Shown here: positions 43,471 through 50,628 of the stretch, piece after piece
Layout of the letters: each line of letters begins with the position of its first letter
How positions within the stretch are numbered: position 1 is the stretch's first letter
Assembly (NCBI GenBank): GCA_905207625.1
Contig: CAJLLT010000003.1
Location: forward strand, 43,924-107,923
From: an uncultured Eubacteriales bacterium
GTDB lineage: Bacteria > Bacillota > Clostridia > Oscillospirales > UBA644
Length of the DNA stretch: 64,000 nucleotides
Direction: 5' to 3'
The notes under the pieces: generated by a model
What the model saw: only the letters and a program-made list of their open reading frames with translations
What the model was told of the DNA's origin: nothing
Database searches by the model: none
Translations under genes and position numbers: made by a program

Positions 43471-43591
43471 GACTGCATCCTCCTTGTCTGTTTTTCATTA
43501 TGTGCATTACTTCCCGGAATATACTCCGCGATGGATGTCTATATCCGCAATTCCGGGTCTTTCCGTATGGCAGGAATATATTCCCGGAACG

Positions 43592-43620
43592 ATTATAGCA
43601 TTTTCTCCGAGGATTGTCAA
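43592..43620 (-). promoter_or_regulatory. Perfect consensus promoter for trx-rubrerythrin (minus strand)
   Basis: On the minus strand: TTGACA (43620-43615), 17 bp, TATAAT (43597-43592). Leader of about 115 nt. Confidence 0.7.
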
Positions 43621-43654
43621 GAACCGGGGTTGGTGTAAAATAAACAACAAGAAG

Positions 43655-43670
43655 GTTAGTGTGTGCTAAC
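43655..43670 (+). promoter_or_regulatory. Dyad site S1 (GTTAGT-GTGT-GCTAAC)
   Basis: Copy 1 of six GTTAGY-N4-GCTAAY dyads. Lies between the divergent trx and feo promoters. Confidence 0.55.
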
Positions 43671-43725
43671 TCTTTGGGCAGACTGCCGAATTTGTTAAAA
43701 AATCGGAAAATGAAGGAAAAACCTA

Positions 43726-43754
43726 TTGACAAACCCGCGTTTCTATAGTATAAT
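43726..43754 (+). promoter_or_regulatory. Perfect consensus promoter of the feo operon
   Basis: TTGACA (43726-43731), 17 bp, TATAAT (43749-43754). Confidence 0.75.
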
Positions 43755-43762
43755 ACGAGTCG

Positions 43763-43880
43763 GTTAGCGGAAGCTAATCAATTTTAAAGGTTTATGGTTA
43801 GTCGGTGCTAATTATTTTTTAAGGGTTCGGGTTAGCTTTTGCTAATCATTTTGTTTCCCGGCGGGTTAGCACCTGCTAAT
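43763..43880 (+). promoter_or_regulatory. Array of four phased dyads S2-S5 (34-bp period) in the feo initial transcribed region and 5' UTR
   Basis: GTTAGCGGAAGCTAAT (43763), GTTAGTCGGTGCTAAT (43797), GTTAGCTTTTGCTAAT (43831) and GTTAGCACCTGCTAAT (43865). The start-to-start distance is exactly 34 bp, three times. Confidence 0.6.
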
Positions 43881-43898
43881 TGAAAGGGAGGGATTCGT

Positions 43899-44111
43899 AT
43901 GATGCCGCTCTGTCTGGCAGACGTGGGAGAGGAAAACATCATAAGAAAGATCGGCGGAAGCCCGGAGATAAAAAAACATCTTGAAAATCTGGGGTTTGTC
44001 GTCGGCGGAACAGTGACCGTGGTCAACACTCTTGCGGGTAACGTGATAGTGAATGTCAAAGAATCCAGGGTTGCCATAAGCGAAGAAATGGCAAGGAAGA
44101 TAATGGTATGA
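43899..44111 (+). CDS. feoA: FeoA family protein (copy 1)
   Basis: 70 aa SH3-like FeoA pattern (L.....G....I..I.G.......L...G...G....V). SD GGGAGGG upstream. Confidence 0.9.
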   Translation: MMPLCLADVGEENIIRKIGGSPEIKKHLENLGFVVGGTVTVVNTLAGNVIVNVKESRVAISEEMARKIMV

Positions 44112-44159
44112 CCCGGAGCTCCCGGTGAACAAGTAATTTATTTAAGGAGGATACAGGCA

Positions 44160-44381
44160 ATGAAGACTCTAAGACAGGCGGAAGTCGGGCAGACCGTAAA
44201 GGTAGTCAGACTTCACGGCGAGGGCGCGGTGAAGCGTCGTATTATGGATATGGGCCTGACAAAAGGTGTTGAGGTTTACGTCCGTAAAGTGGCGCCTCTC
44301 GGAGATCCCATAGAGCTGACTGTCCGCGGATATGAGCTTTCGCTGAGAAAAGCCGATGCGGAAATGGTAGAGGTTGAGTAA
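44160..44381 (+). CDS. feoA: FeoA family protein (copy 2)
   Basis: 73 aa (LRQAEVGQTVKVVRLHGEGAVKRRIMDMGLTKGVEVYV...). SD AAGGAGG upstream. Confidence 0.9.
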   Translation: MKTLRQAEVGQTVKVVRLHGEGAVKRRIMDMGLTKGVEVYVRKVAPLGDPIELTVRGYELSLRKADAEMVEVE

Positions 44382-44424
44382 GACCGTATGGGGAAGGAGG
44401 CTTCCCGTATTTTTGAGATCAGCG

Positions 44425-44440
44425 GTTAGCAAAAGCTAAT
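44425..44440 (+). promoter_or_regulatory. Dyad site S6 (GTTAGC-AAAA-GCTAAT) between feoA2 and feoB
   Basis: Same 16-mer as S1-S5. Ends 6 nt before the feoB SD AAGGAG, mirroring S5, which ends 5 nt before the feoA1 SD. Confidence 0.55.
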
Positions 44441-44454
44441 TGCGGTAAGGAGAA

Positions 44455-46968
44455 ATGCAAGAAATGGAACTGAAAATTGCCCTTGCGGGTAACCCGAACA
44501 GCGGTAAGACCACACTGTTCAACGCTCTTACCGGCTCCAACCAGTTCGTAGGTAACTGGCCCGGTGTAACGGTGGAGAAAAAGGAAGGTAAACTCAAGAA
44601 ACACGATGACGTGAAAATAGTTGACCTTCCCGGTATATACTCTCTTTCCCCCTATACTCTGGAGGAAGTTGTTGCAAGAAATTATCTTATAAGCGAAAGA
44701 CCGAATGCCATCCTCAATATTATCGACGGTACCAACCTGGAAAGAAACCTGTACCTGACCACTCAGCTGGTGGAACTCGGTATCCCGGTTGTCATAGCCA
44801 TCAACATGATGGACGTTGTCCGCAAGAACGGCGACAAGATAGATACTGCTGAGCTTTCCCGTCAGCTCGGATGCAAGATAGTTGAGATCTCCGCGCTTAA
44901 AGGAACCGGTATCATGGAGGCTGCCGAAGCTGCCATTGACGCCGCGAAGAATGGCAAGACCATTCCCCAGCATAGCTTTTCCGGCTGTGTTGAGCATGCC
45001 ATTGCCCATATTGAGGAGGCAGCAGTTCACGGGCTTCCCGAGGAGCAGCAGAGATGGTATGCCATAAAGATTTTCGAGCGTGACGACAAGGTTCTCGGTT
45101 CCCTGAACATAAAGAAAGAGACCCTTGATCATATCGAACAGGATATCAAGGCTGCCGAAAAAGAGCTTGACGATGACGCCGAATCTATCATAACCAATGA
45201 AAGATACGTTTACATAGCGTCCATAATCAAGTCCTGCTATAAGAAAAAGAATGTAGGAAAGCTTTCCGCTTCCGATAAAATAGACCGTGTCGTCACTAAC
45301 CGCTGGCTGGGTCTTCCCATATTTGCGGTAATCATGTTCCTGGTTTATTATCTGTCCATGGTAACTGTAGGCGCGTCTGCCACAGACTGGGCAAACGACG
45401 GACTTTTCGGTGACGGTTGGCATCTGCTGGGCATAGGCTCAAAGCAGTATGAGGAAGTTTCCGGTGAATACGAAGACGCCCTCAATGCCATAAACGGTTT
45501 TGTTGAGATCGATCCCGAAGCGGAGGACTTTGATGCCGCCGCTGCCCTTGAAGCTATCAGAAACTTCAGACCCGAAAGCGACAATGCCACGGGTACGGTA
45601 ACGGTAGAGGATGAAGAGACCCTCGAACGTGCGGAAATGACTGTCTACTATTCCGAAATTCCCGAGTCGGTAAAGAATGATAAGGAAAACGACAGCTATA
45701 TTTCCGTGACCTATCTTGAAGCAAAGGAATACTTTGAGACCAAGAACAGTGAATTTGCAGCTCCTGATCCGGCGGATTACGGTGTCTGGGTTCCCGGTGT
45801 ACCGGTTCTTATCGGTACCGGTCTTGAGGCTGCCAATGCCCCCGAATGGCTGTCCGGACTTATCCTTGACGGTATAGTTGCCGGTGTCGGTGCGGTTCTC
45901 GGATTTGTTCCCCAGATGCTGGTTCTGTTCCTGCTGCTTGCATTCCTTGAAGCCTGCGGCTACATGGCCCGTATCGCTTTCGTTCTCGACCGTATATTCC
46001 GTAAGTTCGGTCTGTCCGGTAAGTCCTTTATTCCTATGCTTATCGGTACCGGCTGCGGTATTCCGGGTATTATGGCTTCCCGTACGATAGAAAACGAACG
46101 TGACCGTCGTATGACGATAATGACAACGACCTTTATACCCTGCGGCGCAAAAGTTCCCTTTATTGCAATGATTGCCGGCGCGCTTTTCGGCGGTTCTGCC
46201 TGGGTTGCGACCTCCGCATACTTTATCGGTATGGCGGCAATAATAGTTTCCGGTATCATGCTTAAAAAGACCAAGATGTTCTCCGGCGAACCCGCACCCT
46301 TCGTTATGGAGCTTCCCGCATATCACTGGCCGACGGTCGGAAACGTTCTCCGTTCCATGTGGGAGCGTGGCTGGTCCTTCATCAAGAAGGCCGGTACGGT
46401 CATTCTCCTGTCTACCATCTTTGTCTGGTTCACCACCTATTTCGGTTTTGTGGACGGAACCTTCCGTATGCTGTCCGAGGATGAACTGAATATGTCTATT
46501 CTTGCGGCTATCGGTTCCGCTATCGCCTGGATCTTCAAGCCTCTGGGCTGGGGCACCTGGCAGGCTGCCGTTGCCTCCATTACCGGACTTGTGGCGAAGG
46601 AAAACATCGTCGGTACAATGGGTATCCTTTATCCCGAAGGCTGGCCCGAGATCGCACAGGCATTCAACGGCATCACCGGATATTCTTTCCTGGTATTCAA
46701 TCTGCTGTGCGCACCTTGCTTTGCAGCCATCGGTGCTATCAAGCGTGAAATGAACAGTGCCAAATGGACCTGGTTTGCCATTGGTTATCAGTGCGGATTT
46801 GCGTATGCTATTGCCCTCATGATAAATCAGTTCGGCGGACTGTTCACCGGCAATGTAAATGTTATCGGTCTTATCTTCTCCGTGGCTATCCTTGCGGGTA
46901 TGATCTATATGCTGGTCCGTCCTTATAAGGAAGCAACGAAGCTGACGGCCAAAGTGAAGGTAAAATAA
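44455..46968 (+). CDS. feoB: Ferrous iron transporter FeoB (with about 140-aa acidic extracytoplasmic insert)
   Basis: 837 aa. G-domain motifs GNPNSGKTT, DLPG and NMMD, and a polytopic C-terminal domain. Alternative ATG at 44464. Confidence 0.93.
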   Translation: MQEMELKIALAGNPNSGKTTLFNALTGSNQFVGNWPGVTVEKKEGKLKKHDDVKIVDLPGIYSLSPYTLEEVVARNYLISERPNAILNIIDGTNLERNLYLTTQLVELGIPVVIAINMMDVVRKNGDKIDTAELSRQLGCKIVEISALKGTGIMEAAEAAIDAAKNGKTIPQHSFSGCVEHAIAHIEEAAVHGLPEEQQRWYAIKIFERDDKVLGSLNIKKETLDHIEQDIKAAEKELDDDAESIITNERYVYIASIIKSCYKKKNVGKLSASDKIDRVVTNRWLGLPIFAVIMFLVYYLSMVTVGASATDWANDGLFGDGWHLLGIGSKQYEEVSGEYEDALNAINGFVEIDPEAEDFDAAAALEAIRNFRPESDNATGTVTVEDEETLERAEMTVYYSEIPESVKNDKENDSYISVTYLEAKEYFETKNSEFAAPDPADYGVWVPGVPVLIGTGLEAANAPEWLSGLILDGIVAGVGAVLGFVPQMLVLFLLLAFLEACGYMARIAFVLDRIFRKFGLSGKSFIPMLIGTGCGIPGIMASRTIENERDRRMTIMTTTFIPCGAKVPFIAMIAGALFGGSAWVATSAYFIGMAAIIVSGIMLKKTKMFSGEPAPFVMELPAYHWPTVGNVLRSMWERGWSFIKKAGTVILLSTIFVWFTTYFGFVDGTFRMLSEDELNMSILAAIGSAIAWIFKPLGWGTWQAAVASITGLVAKENIVGTMGILYPEGWPEIAQAFNGITGYSFLVFNLLCAPCFAAIGAIKREMNSAKWTWFAIGYQCGFAYAIALMINQFGGLFTGNVNVIGLIFSVAILAGMIYMLVRPYKEATKLTAKVKVK

Positions 46969-46997: not shown

Positions 46998-47171
46998 ATG
47001 TTTGCCTGGATAACGGCAAATCTGGCAACCATCATAATTTGTCTGGTACTTATACTTATTGTGGCAGCGATAATCGTCGGCCTGGTCAAGGATAAGAAAA
47101 AAGGCAAATCCACTTGTGGATGCAACTGTGCCCACTGCGCAATGGCGGGCTCCTGCCACAAAAAGAAATGA
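46998..47171 (+). CDS. FeoB-associated Cys-rich small membrane protein
   Basis: 57 aa, below the track cutoff: MFAWITANLATIIICLVLILIVAAIIVGLVKDKKKGKSTCGCNCAHCAMAGSCHKKK. One TM helix plus a Cys cluster. SD AAAGGAG lies 9 nt upstream. Position directly after feoB fits. Confidence 0.7.
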   Translation: MFAWITANLATIIICLVLILIVAAIIVGLVKDKKKGKSTCGCNCAHCAMAGSCHKKK

Positions 47172-47176
47172 CACGC

Positions 47177-47204
47177 AGGGAGCGCAACGAAAGTTTGCGC
47201 TCCC
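47177..47204 (+). terminator. Hairpin terminator between the feo genes and the regulator gene
   Basis: AGGGAGCGCAA-CGAAAG-TTGCGCTCCCT followed by TATTT. Only about 24 nt separate it from ATG 47229. Confidence 0.65.
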
Positions 47205-47228
47205 TTATTTCAGGAGAGGAGGTAAGCG

Positions 47229-47621
47229 ATGGCTAACCAAAAAAACCTTACTCCGTCCAATATCAGGTATCTGCTTGCCATGAAGCAATTGGACAAGAAC
47301 GGTTCCGGAGTCCGGAGCGTGGATATTGCCACTTGCCTGGGACTGTCAAGACCGAGTGTCCATAACATGATGAAGACCCTCATTGAAATGGGCTTTATCA
47401 GAAAAACGGCTTACGGTGTTGCCTTTCTGACGGAAGAGGGAGAGCAGACCGCACGGAGATACGGAAAGTATTATCTTTCGGTCTCGGAATTTCTCCGGGA
47501 CGGTTTTCCCGGGTTGAAGCCGGTATGTCCCGCTGTTTTTGCTCTTCTTGCGGAGATTCCGGAGACGGATCTTGAAAAGCTCTGCGACAGCAGACAGATG
47601 TCAGGTGAGGTTACAGTATAA
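47229..47621 (+). CDS. DtxR/MntR-family winged-helix regulator lacking canonical metal ligands
   Basis: 130 aa. Aligns with the MntR N-terminal half (PS...Y......L.......R..DIA..L....PSV..M...L...G.I.....G...LT..G) and helix ...EFL. Positions of MntR Asp8, Glu11 and His77 read Arg, Leu and Tyr. Confidence 0.75.
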   Translation: MANQKNLTPSNIRYLLAMKQLDKNGSGVRSVDIATCLGLSRPSVHNMMKTLIEMGFIRKTAYGVAFLTEEGEQTARRYGKYYLSVSEFLRDGFPGLKPVCPAVFALLAEIPETDLEKLCDSRQMSGEVTV

Positions 47622-47634
47622 AGGAGTTTCGGTT

Positions 47635-48336
47635 ATGGCAATAGTTGAATTCAAAAACGTAAGCCGTGTTTATACCAGCGGCGATCATGAGCTTAAAGCT
47701 CTGGATAATGTGAACATGACCCTTGATGAGGGGAAGTTTGTGGTTATTCTCGGCCCCAGCGGTGCGGGAAAAAGCACTTTGCTGAATCTTCTGGGAGGAC
47801 TTGACAGTCCCACGGAAGGAAAGATCCTGGTGGAGGGCAAGGATATTTCGGAGCTTTCAAACGACGAACTTGCGGAATACCGGGCGGCGAAGGTAGGGTT
47901 TGTTTTCCAGTTTTACAATCTCGTCCCGACACTGACCGTACACGAAAACGTTGCTTTGGTTAAAGATATTTCTCCGGATCCTCTTTCCGCCACGGAGATG
48001 ATAAAACAGGTCGGTCTTTCCGATCATCTCAAGAATTTTCCCGCCGAACTTTCCGGCGGCGAACAGCAGCGGGTTTCAATTGCCAGGGCTCTGGCAAAGA
48101 ATCCGAAAATTTTGCTTTGTGACGAACCCACCGGGGCTCTTGACTCCGAAACGGGGGTCGTTGTGCTGAAACTTTTGCTGAAAATGGCGAGGGATTACGG
48201 TAAAACCATAGTTATTGTAACACATAACCAGAATATTGCGAAAATGGCTGACGTTGTTATCCGGGTAAGAAACGGCCGGATCGTTTCACAGCAACAGCAG
48301 TCGGATCCCGCATCAGCCGACGATATCGAGTGGTAA
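47635..48336 (+). CDS. ABC transporter ATP-binding protein (MacB/FtsE/LolD type)
   Basis: 233 aa from ATG 47635, 13 nt after the regulator stop. Walker [10 protein letters not shown], signature LSGGEQQR, Walker [12 protein letters not shown]. Confidence 0.92.
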
Positions 48337-48348
48337 GGGGGATAAGGT

Positions 48349-50628
48349 ATGCTCTTCAGAAAATTGTGGAGAACAATGGGTCTTTACAAAGCCCAGTTTA
48401 TCTCCATGATAATCATGATAGCCCTCGGTATAGGTATTTTCGTCGGTTTCAATATGGAATGGTACAGTATCGAAACGAATACCGGGAATTTTTTTGACCT
48501 TACCGGTTACGCCGATTACCGTATAATTTCCGAAAAAGGCTTCAGTCCGGAGCAACTTCAGAAAATATCCGGCATTGACGGAGTCGACGCTGCGGCAAGG
48601 TTTCTTGCGGTAAGCGCGGACGTGAAAGGGAGCAACGGAGACAGTGTTTCCCTTACCATCACCACCGATGAAAACGTTTCCGGATTTTTCCTTGTTGAAG
48701 GGGAAAAATACGATGCCGGCTGTGAAGACGGAATATGGCTTTCGGATAAGTTCGCTGCCGCCAACGGACTTTTTTTGGGGGATAATATTACCCTTACATA
48801 TAAAAACCTGGAAATAAGCGGAAAGATAAGGGGTCTTGTCAAGTCCGGAGAATATCTTGTCTGTGTCCGGGATTCAAGTCAGCTTATGCCGGATTATGAC
48901 ACCCACGGATTTGCATACATATCTCCCGCCATGTACCGGAAAGTCGCCGGATATGAGTTTTATCCTCAGATCCATGTGATCTCAGACATGGCAAAGAAAG
49001 ATTTTGTTGAGGCTGCCGACACCGCTCTCGGGAATACGGCGATGATACTTACGAAGGACGAATCCGCCTCATACTCCGCCGCAAACGGCGAGGCTGAAGA
49101 GGGAAAGACCATGGGTTCCATTCTTCCCGTTCTGTTTTTGCTTATTGCGGTGCTGACCATGGTCACGACCATGCACCGTCTTACCGCAAAGGAAAAGACG
49201 CAGATCGGGACTCTCAAAGCCCTGGGCTTCAAGGACAGGCGTATTCTTGCGCACTATACCTGCTACGCCTTCATGATAGGGCTTATAGGTTCCGCCATAG
49301 GTATAGCTCTCGGTTACGGAATAAGTTACTTTATAATGAATCCCAACGGGATGATGGGAACATATTTCGATATGCCGCAGTGGAATATGCCGCTCCCCTG
49401 GTTCTGCGGACTCGCCGTAATCGGGATAATCGGGCTTCTTACGCTCATAGGTCTGCTTTCCGTCAGACAAATGCTCAGGGGGACTGCGGCCGATGCCCTC
49501 CGTCCTTATTCCCCGAAAAAAATGAAGCCCATGCTTATAGAAAGAACGAAGTGGTTCCACCGCCTGGGATTCGGTACCCGGTGGAATATGCGGGACGTGA
49601 TAAGGCATAAATCCAGAACTGCCATGAGCCTTGTGGGTATTGTGGGCTGTACCGTCCTGATTGTCGGATCTTTGGGCATGAGGGATACTATGGATGAATT
49701 CCTCAATCTTTATTATGACGGGGCGACCAATTATTCTTCCCGTATATTCCTTTCCGAGGAGGCTACTCCCGAACAGCGCCGGCAGATCATCGACGAATAT
49801 GACGGAGACTGGAGCAGCTCGGTAAGTGTCCAGATAGAAGAGAAAGCGGTTTCCCTTGATATTTACGGAGTTGAACACGATAAGGTCCGTTTCCCGGGAC
49901 AGAAGTCGGGGTATACCCGCATCGGTGATGACGGGGCGTATATCTGCGTCCGGATAGCCGATGAATTCGGTCTTTCGGCGGGCGATGTGTTTATCCTCAG
50001 TCCCTACGGCTCTGAGGACAGTTATACCGTAAAGGTCGCCGGTGTGATACGGAGTGTTTCGGAGAGTATAGTCATAAGTCCTGCGTACGCCGATTCCCTC
50101 GGTCTGGCATACTCTGCCGATTCGGTCTATACCGATACGGCAAAGGAGAATATAAAAACCGACGGGGCGGTCAAAAGCGTTCAGTCCAAGCAGATGATAA
50201 TGGATTCCTTTGATACTTTTACCGAGCTGATGGATTCCATGATAATAGTTCTTGTGGTCGGTGCTCTTATACTCGGTGTTGTCGTCCTTTACAATCTCGG
50301 TGTAATGAGTTATACCGAAAGATACAGAGAAATGGCTACACTTAAAGTTGTTGGATTCAAAGACCGGAAGATAGGGAGCCTCCTTGTGGGACAGAATCTG
50401 TGGCTGAGCCTTATTGGTGTCATTATAGGACTTCCTGCCGGAATAGGTGTTTTGGACTATCTGCTGAAGGCTCTTGCCGGCGAATATGAAATGAAGCTGG
50501 CGATAAGCCCGCTGAGTATAGCTGTAAGTGTAGTTCTTACTTTCGGGATGTCTTTGCTGGTAAGCCTCATGGTTGCCCGTAAGAATAAGCACATAGACAT
50601 GGTGGAAGCCCTGAAGGGTGCGGAGTGA
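48349..50628 (+). CDS. ABC transporter permease with two FtsX domains (MacB-like)
   Basis: 759 aa. Two 4-TM FtsX-type modules (TLKALGF.DR..., TLKVVGFKDR...) separated by large extracytoplasmic domains. Confidence 0.88.
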   Translation: MLFRKLWRTMGLYKAQFISMIIMIALGIGIFVGFNMEWYSIETNTGNFFDLTGYADYRIISEKGFSPEQLQKISGIDGVDAAARFLAVSADVKGSNGDSVSLTITTDENVSGFFLVEGEKYDAGCEDGIWLSDKFAAANGLFLGDNITLTYKNLEISGKIRGLVKSGEYLVCVRDSSQLMPDYDTHGFAYISPAMYRKVAGYEFYPQIHVISDMAKKDFVEAADTALGNTAMILTKDESASYSAANGEAEEGKTMGSILPVLFLLIAVLTMVTTMHRLTAKEKTQIGTLKALGFKDRRILAHYTCYAFMIGLIGSAIGIALGYGISYFIMNPNGMMGTYFDMPQWNMPLPWFCGLAVIGIIGLLTLIGLLSVRQMLRGTAADALRPYSPKKMKPMLIERTKWFHRLGFGTRWNMRDVIRHKSRTAMSLVGIVGCTVLIVGSLGMRDTMDEFLNLYYDGATNYSSRIFLSEEATPEQRRQIIDEYDGDWSSSVSVQIEEKAVSLDIYGVEHDKVRFPGQKSGYTRIGDDGAYICVRIADEFGLSAGDVFILSPYGSEDSYTVKVAGVIRSVSESIVISPAYADSLGLAYSADSVYTDTAKENIKTDGAVKSVQSKQMIMDSFDTFTELMDSMIIVLVVGALILGVVVLYNLGVMSYTERYREMATLKVVGFKDRKIGSLLVGQNLWLSLIGVIIGLPAGIGVLDYLLKALAGEYEMKLAISPLSIAVSVVLTFGMSLLVSLMVARKNKHIDMVEALKGAE

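Follow-up and report, generated by a model that had tools for sequence, protein, structure and literature searches.

The operators closest to the element described here are those of the metal-dependent regulator MntR. Their enterobacterial consensus is AACATAGCnnnnGCTATGTT (PMC1698941). In B. subtilis, one MntR dimer occupies an 18-bp site composed of two 9-bp inverted repeats, and dimers that contact each other sit on sites 1 bp apart (PMC11882963). Sites of the DtxR-family regulator TroR are frequently found two in a row, with about 30 bp from one to the next, and either copy suffices for repression (PMC10783522). It is established that PurR, GalR, CcpA and CodY can repress as roadblocks to the polymerase, as are the rescue of a halted polymerase by trailing polymerases and its release by Mfd; this rescue is the recognised weak point of roadblocks, which otherwise rely on Mfd (PMC10310618). 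NusG-dependent pausing at TTNTTT (PMC12288461) and weak terminators stimulated by NusG (PMC8060035) are known from Firmicutes. The subject of this report is a set of short dyads around the feoA-feoA-feoB operon in DNA from an uncultured Eubacteriales bacterium (contig CAJLLT010000003.1). The whole 64-kb stretch that was analysed is called the window, and site coordinates refer to it. Identical contigs were found in human gut metagenomes.

We propose that the dyads are very probably DNA operators of an Fe-sensing repressor of the DtxR/MntR type, common to many gut Clostridia. Taken jointly, MntR-type 18-bp operators, a repressor of an iron-starvation regulon, and an action by roadblock and terminator probably make up the best explanation of the locus. 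The coupling of the operators to terminators consisting of a hairpin and a run of T residues (T-run) is its tentative component. A full-text literature search on the motif letters, on feo/DtxR/Clostridia and on DUF3793, with regulon databases outside its scope, gave no account of the motif, the regulon or the module.

Dyads of the feo locus and their counterparts in Clostridia

When the 64-kb window was scanned for the pattern GTTAGYNNNNGCTAAY, six exact GTTAGY-N4-GCTAAY sites were obtained, all on the + strand, starting at 43655, 43763, 43797, 43831, 43865 and 44425, as had been noticed in an earlier inspection of this DNA (the sequence-only reading). The number of matches expected from a dinucleotide-preserving shuffle of the window was 0.01, and six or more sites occurred in 0/100 shuffles. 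Other particulars of that reading were also verified in the sequence: each of the six dyads is preceded by G, the centres are all unlike (GTGT, GGAA, CGGT, TTTT, ACCT and AAAA), the second to fifth sites (S2-S5) are spaced by 34, 34 and 34 bp, a T-run follows each of S2, S3 and S4, and S5 and S6 lie just ahead of Shine-Dalgarno (SD) sequences. With mismatches allowed, one extra site, S7 (GGTAAGCgatgGCTAACC, 47221-47238, one mismatch), was found, and the regulator gene (47229) has its ATG in the centre of this site. The complete unit is the 18-bp palindrome GGTTAGC-N4-GCTAACC. Its centre measures 4 bp in 7/7 window sites and in the cross-species position matrix, and more than 250 sites of this type, with the same geometry as in the window, were gathered from other species. 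No copies of the dyad were found in the window outside the feo operon. Tandem Repeats Finder detected no 34-bp repeat in the leader, which indicates that only the dyads and not the spacers are conserved; a recent duplication as the origin of the 34-bp phasing was rejected on this ground. The sites and the two promoters next to them are as follows.

43620-43592, - strand: divergent trx promoter, predicted, 12/12 match
43654..43671, unstranded: S1, upstream operator GGTTAGTgtgtGCTAACT, flanked by the divergent trx and feo promoters, 108 bp ahead of S2
43726..43754, + strand: feo promoter TTGACA-17-TATAAT, predicted, 12/12 match
43762..43779, unstranded: S2 ('site 1'), operator covering about +1 to +18, with the T-run AATTTTAAAGG after it; sense hairpin of -7.3 kcal/mol with a GGAA loop
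43796..43813, unstranded: S3, leader operator at 34-bp spacing, followed by the T-run ATTTTTT; hairpin of -2.8 kcal/mol
43830..43847, unstranded: S4, leader operator followed by ATTTTGTTT, terminator-like by pattern scan
43864..43881, unstranded: S5, last leader operator, right arm GCTAATT, no T-run, feoA1 SD next
44424..44441, unstranded: S6, operator 9 nt past a terminator T-run and 5-6 nt before the feoB SD
47221..47238, unstranded: S7, operator GGTAAGCgATGGCTAACC, regulator start codon in the centre, right arm coding for Ala-Asn

S1 lies between two divergent promoters, as the sequence-only reading had described, and both match at 12/12 positions. The same reading had placed the transcription start 2 nt ahead of S2, behind a perfect TTGACA-17-TATAAT promoter; the promoter is indeed perfect, and a start near S2 is a prediction, with 7 nt from the promoter end to the GG of S2. 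Promoters, transcription start sites and terminators are pattern predictions throughout this report.

Counterparts were collected with a scan for pairs of dyads separated by 10-40 nt, in which each species was represented by a single genome. This gave at least 119 loci (given L numbers below), nearly all from Clostridia, most of them in metagenome-assembled genomes (MAGs), with gene starts taken from tblastn and site classes assigned by simple rules. The carriers belong to the Oscillospiraceae, Ruminococcaceae, Acutalibacteraceae, Lachnospiraceae and Christensenellaceae, plus one Erysipelotrichales and one Selenomonadales genome; culturable carriers are, for example, Intestinimonas, Flavonifractor, Roseburia and Lachnospiraceae YSD2013. 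By tblastn, feoA/feoB stands directly beside the dyads in 80 of the at least 119 loci, and the remaining 39 listed loci mostly have tandem dyads ahead of other genes. The second commonest gene behind a tandem operator among the listed loci encodes DUF3793 (about 15 loci, one of them verified against Pfam; L004, L025, L032, L037, L043, L050, L058, L074, L098, L100, L101, L104, L108 and others). In L104 it is followed by a flavodoxin gene, and in L050 by an ABC ATPase gene homologous to window 47635-48336. Flavodoxin, a ZIP transporter, a NEAT-domain protein, ABC transporters and a nitroreductase are also encoded behind tandem dyads. Judged by this placement, DUF3793 belongs to the iron-starvation response. 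Sites at metal-homeostasis genes thus recur in many genomes, and a gene set with the content of an iron-starvation regulon rules out a dispersed repeat of the repetitive extragenic palindrome (REP) type, which the sequence-only reading had raised as the opposing case. A dispersed repeat of the REP type or the miniature inverted-repeat transposable element type was likewise rejected, because the window copies are confined to the feo operon and the placement in other genomes is gene-specific. One locus, L010 (Bacteroidales MAG, 2156-2260), was discarded as a chance look-alike: its copies of GGTTAGTcgggGCTAACG belong to a GC-rich direct repeat, about 25 bp long and unrelated to feo. The leaders of the conspecific strains L120-L123 were nearly identical, and their comparison was uninformative.

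In about 30 of the loci found through the motif, a gene of about 125 aa is divergent to feo. Its product matches PF01325 plus PF02742, conserves the residues E-x-x-E-M-Y-L-E, E-R-H and E-D-A-C-(K/R)-x-E-H, and has DtxR, IdeR and E. coli MntR as its best solved relatives. We take this set of Met, Cys, Glu and His residues to be typical of Fe-sensing DtxR/IdeR. The dyads therefore co-occur, in the loci of other genomes, with a DtxR-family gene bearing an intact metal site, and this canonical protein is likely to be the cognate regulator. A reverse test was performed with 80 metagenomic loci fetched through the regulator protein alone (the regulator-ascertained sample; the loci described above are the motif-ascertained sample), of which 74 were assessed for dyads. 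At least one dyad was present within 450 bp of the regulator in 32/74 loci, against roughly 0.002 expected per locus. Regulators adjacent to feo had intergenic dyads in almost every case, and among these regulator-ascertained loci no dyad was found at regulators not adjoining feo, which suggests that there is no general autoregulation.

The layout of the leaders is conserved as well. A sigma-A promoter with two or fewer mismatches to the consensus precedes the first leader site (site 1; S2 in the window) in 72/74 classified leaders, and one with at most one mismatch of 12 in 60/74. Site 1 starts 6-9 nt past the -10 element in 69/74 leaders and would therefore cover about +1 to +18. Its distance to site 2 is 34 bp in 61 cases, 35 in 13 and 33 in 8, and the SD of the first gene comes after site 2. 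Two leader sites are present in most species; the four of the window form an unusually long series. The other genes of the regulon have the same order of promoter, site 1, T-run and site 2. The comparison of feo leaders among relatives, which the sequence-only reading had recommended, gave arms that are invariant across distant clostridial lineages, around an N4 centre. Sites within the promoter spacer, TTGACA-AGTTAGCnnnnGCTAACT-ATAAT, were found in 6-7 genomes in the motif-ascertained and in the regulator-ascertained sample, and about 17 genomes carry an extra 'up' site 102-111 bp ahead of site 1, whose window counterpart is S1. Since the spacer sites and those near -100 lie outside the feo transcript, the element appears to be read as DNA.

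Two inverted half-sites around a 4-bp centre with a TAGC-N4-GCTA core are the hallmark of an MntR-type operator, and the dyads have this form. The 19-bp DtxR/IdeR iron box has a single central base and takes two dimers, and the 4-bp centre found here does not agree with it. The sequence-only reading had assigned the dyads to a DtxR-like repressor that binds cooperatively along the leader to a box with a half-turn-longer centre. The substance of this assignment is borne out by the linkage to iron genes in more than 100 species, the co-localised repressor gene, the conserved promoter/site layout and the sites in untranscribed promoter spacers, and these comparative data argue for operators. Its geometry and cooperativity did not hold: the element would instead be an ordinary MntR-type 18-bp site for a single dimer, and known MntR arrays have their sites 1 bp apart, compared with gaps of 16 bp here.

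Some further features were observed around the upstream site. A conserved box, ttGGGC-N5-GC(C/T)GAAA, stands right after S1 (window 43672-43695, window form ctttGGGCagactGCCGAAttt) and also in L053, L072, L114, L099, L023 and L084, and a TTGCA(C/T)-like hexamer is often located 8-10 nt ahead of the upstream site. A sigma-54 assignment of the box was rejected from its wrong GG-to-GC spacing, and no obvious sigma-A promoter was recognised in it either. A weaker promoter-like sequence, TTGTCA-16-TAAAAT, on the + strand at 43614-43641, ends 12 nt before S1 and overlaps the trx -35 element; should it be active, it would be an upstream feo promoter with S1 as its 'site 1'.

Hairpins and T-runs ahead of the operators

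The operon runs in the order feoA, feoA, feoB, Cys-rich peptide, terminator, 130-aa winged-helix protein, ABC ATPase and FtsX permease, and its features other than the operators are listed below.

43899..44111, + strand: feoA1, Pfam FeoA, 1.8e-15
44160..44381, + strand: feoA2, Pfam FeoA, 3.7e-22
44391..44414, + strand: intrinsic-terminator-like hairpin GGGAAGgaggCTTCCC plus GTATTTTT in the feoA2-feoB gap, -8.6 kcal/mol
44455..46968, + strand: feoB, Pfam FeoB_N, Gate and FeoB_C; start more likely at 44464
46998..47171, + strand: FeoB-associated Cys-rich membrane protein, Pfam PF12669, 2e-13
47177..47211, + strand: strong terminator hairpin plus TTATTT after the Cys-rich gene, -20 kcal/mol
47229..47621, + strand: 130-aa winged-helix, DtxR/MntR-like paralogue without metal ligands
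47635..50628, + strand: ABC ATPase plus FtsX permease, 3' of the regulator gene, from gene calls

By pattern, the sites other than the first of a series lie 7-10 nt past a hairpin and T-run, the hairpin being either the predicted transcript of the previous dyad or a dedicated GC-rich terminator. T occupied positions 21-25 in 62-76% when another site comes after, compared with 19-22% at last sites. Ahead of the non-first sites, positions -14 to -9 form a T-run and position -6 is G, for leader sites and isolated pre-feoB sites alike, and this pattern was reproduced in the motif-ascertained and regulator-ascertained samples. The T-run is polar: it lies on the sense strand in nearly all cases, and no mirrored A-run follows the sites. 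In 36 species a dyad is located 5-30 nt before the feoB SD, with a short GC-rich hairpin and T-run ahead of it, the stems of which vary between species with the pairing kept. The gap between feoA2 and feoB contains both the site and the hairpin with T-run in 21 cases, neither in 16, the site only in 14 and the terminator only in 3, so that the hairpin and T-run accompany 21/35 pre-feoB sites, mostly with 7-9 nt from T-run to site. A similar module of a strong terminator, 8-10 nt and a dyad comes after the Cys-rich gene in the window and in L021, L053, L060, L071, L099 and L116, and in four species this dyad holds the regulator start codon. Where the inter-site distance is 45-56 bp (L013, L043 and L078), an extra hairpin and T-run lie within the gap. 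The strict form TTNTTT was counted ahead of 21/36 pre-feoB sites and 24/102 downstream sites, versus 1/22 upstream control sites. A GC hairpin followed by a sense U-tract, as in an intrinsic terminator, is present at 44391-44414 and 47177-47211 and at their counterparts elsewhere. In the leader, S2-S4 would form 7-bp stems with T-runs 2-3 nt past the stem; the hairpin of the cross-species consensus dyad is predicted at -9.9 kcal/mol, comparable to the pre-feoB terminator. No internal promoters were found before feoB or the regulator gene, and an interpretation of the T-run and GCTAAT as -35 and -10 elements was rejected, since no more than 3-4 of 6 positions match and the crucial A in position 2 is missing. 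The feoB start is more likely at 44464 (MELKIALAG...), where FeoB homologues also begin, than at the ATG at 44455, because 44455 is only 2 nt past the AAGGAG SD and 44464 is normally spaced.

Coupling of the operators to the hairpin/T-run terminators is, in our judgement, possible rather than probable, and the following mechanism is put forward with corresponding reserve. One repressor dimer would bind per 18-bp site, and the regulated set would comprise feoAAB and the DUF3793/flavodoxin, ZIP, NEAT and ABC genes. The iron-bound dimer on site 1 (about +1 to +18) would block initiation or promoter escape, and dimers on S3-S5, on S6 ahead of feoB and on S7 ahead of the regulator and ABC genes would act as roadblocks to the elongating polymerase. 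A polymerase stalled at a weak NusA/NusG-type pause or terminator would be released rather than driven onward by the polymerases behind it; when iron is low, the repressor would leave and the weak terminators would be read through. The ABC ATPase and FtsX genes are probably expressed by such read-through past S7. The 34-bp period would be made up of the operator/hairpin (18 bp), a gap of about 2 nt, a T-run some 5-6 nt long and a stretch of roughly 8 nt to the next operator. It is a somewhat doubtful proposal that the operator serves both as repressor-binding DNA and as weak-terminator hairpin, with release triggered by the next bound operator 7-10 bp past the U-tract (roadblock-gated intrinsic termination, a hybrid of repressor and attenuator), and under the same doubt we place the reuse of this logic with dedicated terminators before feoB and before the ligand-less paralogue. 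The mechanism would explain why the period is 34 bp, why the T-run is polar and missing after the last site, why dedicated terminators keep an identical offset, and why operators stand within the operon, where there is no promoter.

Several observations weigh against this explanation. The leader hairpins of the window are weak (-2.8 to -7.3 kcal/mol), and S4 alone passes a simple terminator scan. The middle-site spacers are A-rich in some species (L020), which fits DNA bending or AT-richness better than U-tracts. A polymerase stops about 14 bp before an EcoRI-Q111 block, and a stall at this distance would possibly put the active site at the start of the T-run, too early for hairpin-driven release. 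The canonical regulator is absent from the 64-kb window, where tblastn matched only the 130-aa paralogue, and its presence in the source genome is assumed. Moreover, the carrier species share ancestry, so that the counts overstate independence. The weak hairpins and A-rich spacers favour an alternative, which we consider rather unlikely on the whole, that the dyads are operators only, acting by promoter occlusion and by cooperative or looped binding with AT-rich spacers for bending; the terminators would then be unrelated punctuation, held at a fixed distance by the compactness of the intergenic regions. All the support for DNA binding applies equally to it, and the tandem sites of Haloferax TroR, about 30 bp apart, have no proposed terminator role (PMC10783522). 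Operators of this kind do not account for the polarity of the T-run and the lack of a mirrored A-run. In addition, the lone pre-feoB and pre-regulator sites have no upstream partner, yet they keep the same T-run offset behind covarying GC hairpins, the 16-bp gap is unlike the 1-bp gap of contacting MntR dimers, and the internal sites have no promoter to occlude. MntR-type operators with a possible roadblock-terminator action are the reading that we retain.

The paralogue at 47229 and signals in the transcript

The protein encoded at 47229 is the regulator that the sequence-only reading had named for binding tests. It has the helix-turn-helix VRSxDIA..LG.SKPSV in common with the canonical regulator, and its closest structure is E. 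coli MntR (2h09, 6e-7). In the alignment, all metal-ligand positions are replaced, and the recognition helix after SKPSV reads HN(M/T)M versus SRA(V/M) in the canonical protein. It scored below the curated cut-offs, with 20.9 bits for PF01325 (cut-off 26) and 49.6 bits for NF008273 (cut-off 153). A DtxR/MntR member has a winged helix and a ligand-bearing dimerisation domain, and the 130-aa protein lacks this combination; by these comparisons it is a degenerate paralogue and not a standard member. Because it has no metal ligand, it is an unlikely iron sensor, a correction to the earlier reading; it is more likely to be a target and possibly a modulator of the system. The arrangement with an S7-type dyad over the regulator start codon was also found in L053, L071 and L116, and the conservation of the N-terminal Met-Ala-Asn can be attributed to the operator GGT(A/T)AGC-gATG-GCTAA(C/T), which overlaps the start codon.

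The relatives of the protein form a small family of 126-137 aa encoded after feoB (window 47229-47621, L053, L039, L062, L071 and L116), in which the SKPSV helix-turn-helix is kept and the ligands are lost.

That this protein itself binds the dyads, as a constitutive or otherwise controlled repressor or as an anti-repressor in competition for these sites, is compatible with the roadblock-terminator reading and is improbable. In at least four species its gene belongs to the operon and is overlapped by a dyad at its start codon, it has the helix-turn-helix in common with the canonical regulator, and no canonical regulator is encoded within the window. However, only about 6 of 80 feo loci have the paralogue downstream of feoB, and all 80 have the motif; its recognition helix differs; without metal ligands it would have no iron response of its own; and the protein search yielded a small family of 5 clusters.

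The transcript carries signals of its own. Deviations from perfect symmetry that would give G-U pairs on the sense transcript, rather than A-C mismatches, were in excess, as the sequence-only reading had noticed for the window. The asymmetry extends beyond the window and is moderate, between 2:1 and 13:1 by sample and site class. The G-U to A-C counts in the motif-ascertained and the regulator-ascertained sample were 39:3 and 15:9 for site 1, 83:23 and 16:5 for downstream sites, 20:9 and 5:4 for pre-feoB sites, and 10:8 and 8:0 for upstream sites. Only the two outer positions of the right arm show the bias, and at the loop-closing pair (7/12) the two types are balanced (28:24). The bias is only about 2:1 for the transcribed sites of the regulator-ascertained set, and the presumed untranscribed upstream sites are biased too, which weakens the argument for RNA. 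The site-1 centres are 82% purine, with GNRA in 20/74 compared with 1/74 for the reverse complement, and the transcript is predicted to begin at the site-1 stem, 6-7 nt after the -10 element. An extension of this stem by flanking bases had no support in the position matrix. From these signals, a secondary constraint on the RNA, as terminator hairpin or as 5'-terminal stabiliser, is likely.

The constraint could be taken further, with operators that moonlight on the mRNA: the 5' stem-loop of site 1 would protect from decay that depends on the 5' end, and U-run-G-N5-hairpin ahead of feoB and of the regulator gene would direct RNase Y-type cleavage, giving stable downstream mRNAs capped by a hairpin. 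RNase Y of S. aureus prefers a G just before the cut, with a stem some 6 nt farther downstream as its guide. The G enriched at -6 ahead of non-first sites, the predicted start of the transcript at the site-1 stem, the GNRA- and purine-rich site-1 centres and the sense G-U excess for site 1 and the downstream sites in both samples agree with this idea. It has little probability in our view, as the G-U bias is limited to the outer right-arm positions and absent from the loop-closing pair, the unbiased sample gives about 2:1 with 8:0 at upstream sites, and the GC hairpin ahead of the T-run is left unexplained.

A primary RNA element, whose transcript hairpins would be bound by an RNA-binding protein or control translation or attenuation alone with no DNA role, could draw on the sense G-U bias, the T-runs, the SD-adjacent placement and the folding of the leader relative to shuffles (z = -4.9, a value made trivial by the repeated arms), but it is extremely improbable and in its pure form excluded, because identical sites occupy promoter spacers and positions some 100 bp ahead of promoters, the arms stay the same from one clostridial order to the next, with single-sided deviations (G-U or A-C) and no compensatory change, unlike the adjacent terminators, the sites serve a multi-gene regulon beside a DNA-binding regulator, a hairpin 3' of the U-tract cannot be an antiterminator, and the leader had no Rfam match at the gathering threshold or at E <= 1. 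The hairpins that the sequence-only reading had offered as its second proposal do not stand as the primary explanation, with invariant arms, no covariation and untranscribed sites; they keep a place as a secondary layer, to which the G-U bias, the T-runs and the GNRA-rich site-1 loops point.

Divergently upstream of the feo operon, thioredoxin and rubrerythrin genes are located. Just downstream of the 12/12 trx promoter, in the predicted thioredoxin 5' leader, there is a 17-nt inverted repeat, TTCCCGGAATATACTCC / GGAATATATTCCCGGAA, at window 43511-43527 and 43573-43589, with arms 88% complementary and 45 nt apart. It could be a leader stem or the operator of a redox regulator.

Comparison with known systems

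Iron control in the dominant gut Clostridia (Oscillospiraceae, Ruminococcaceae and Lachnospiraceae) is essentially uncharted. The motif yields a map of a putative regulon, feoAAB, DUF3793-flavodoxin, ZIP, NEAT and ABC/FtsX, and points to a DtxR/MntR protein as the candidate Fe sensor in hundreds of uncultured species. It also puts DUF3793 into an iron-starvation context. If the terminator coupling is true, roadblocks could be made leak-proof in a new way, and synthetic circuits would gain a compact design. Without a functional coupling, what remains is a new but ordinary DtxR-family operator.

The operators of enterobacterial and B. subtilis MntR are similar to the dyads in their 18-20 bp palindrome with a TAGC-N4-GCTA core and a 4-bp centre (PMC1698941). 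The canonical regulator resembles MntR as a two-domain protein without an SH3/FeoA domain, and in both systems the sites lie at metal-uptake promoters. On the other hand, the outer bases of the half-site differ (GGTTAGC here, ACATAGC in MntR), the regulator here has Met/Cys ligands of the DtxR/IdeR type and its targets would be iron and not manganese genes, the spacing is 34 bp in place of the 19-bp period of cooperative MntR arrays, and the sites here lie past the -10 element and inside the operon, behind a hairpin and T-run. The DtxR/IdeR iron box, TTAGGTTAGGCTAACCTAA, has the same GGTTAG/CTAACC half-site letters and serves the iron-responsive repression of iron uptake, and the N-terminal two domains and metal ligands of DtxR/IdeR are the closest sequence match to the canonical regulator. 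The difference is in the centre, 4 bp here versus 1 bp, which implies one dimer instead of two on opposite faces of the 19-bp box, and in the regulator, which is without the SH3-like third domain. TroR of Haloferax volcanii (TTTAGGC-N3-CCTAAA) is likewise a DtxR-family iron regulator with semi-palindromic sites ahead of iron-uptake genes (PMC10783522); it is archaeal, with another half-site and centre, sites upstream of the TATA box or the start, and no reported association with a hairpin and T-run.

In the roadblock repressors CcpA, CodY, PurR, GalR and LacI, an operator past the promoter or in the operon halts the polymerase, and release sets the efficiency (PMC10310618). Release is attributed there to Mfd or Rho, and a dedicated intrinsic terminator at a set distance upstream of the operator has not been described, whereas here a hairpin and T-run precede the putative roadblock sites. 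The weak terminators and TTNTTT pauses of Firmicutes that depend on NusA/NusG also have a short hairpin followed by a T-rich non-template tract; the leader hairpin here differs in being itself an invariant protein operator, with the tract placed relative to a downstream DNA site. The operator is a new member of a well-known kind; new variants are the conserved module of terminator and operator and the ligand-less paralogue whose gene starts within an operator.

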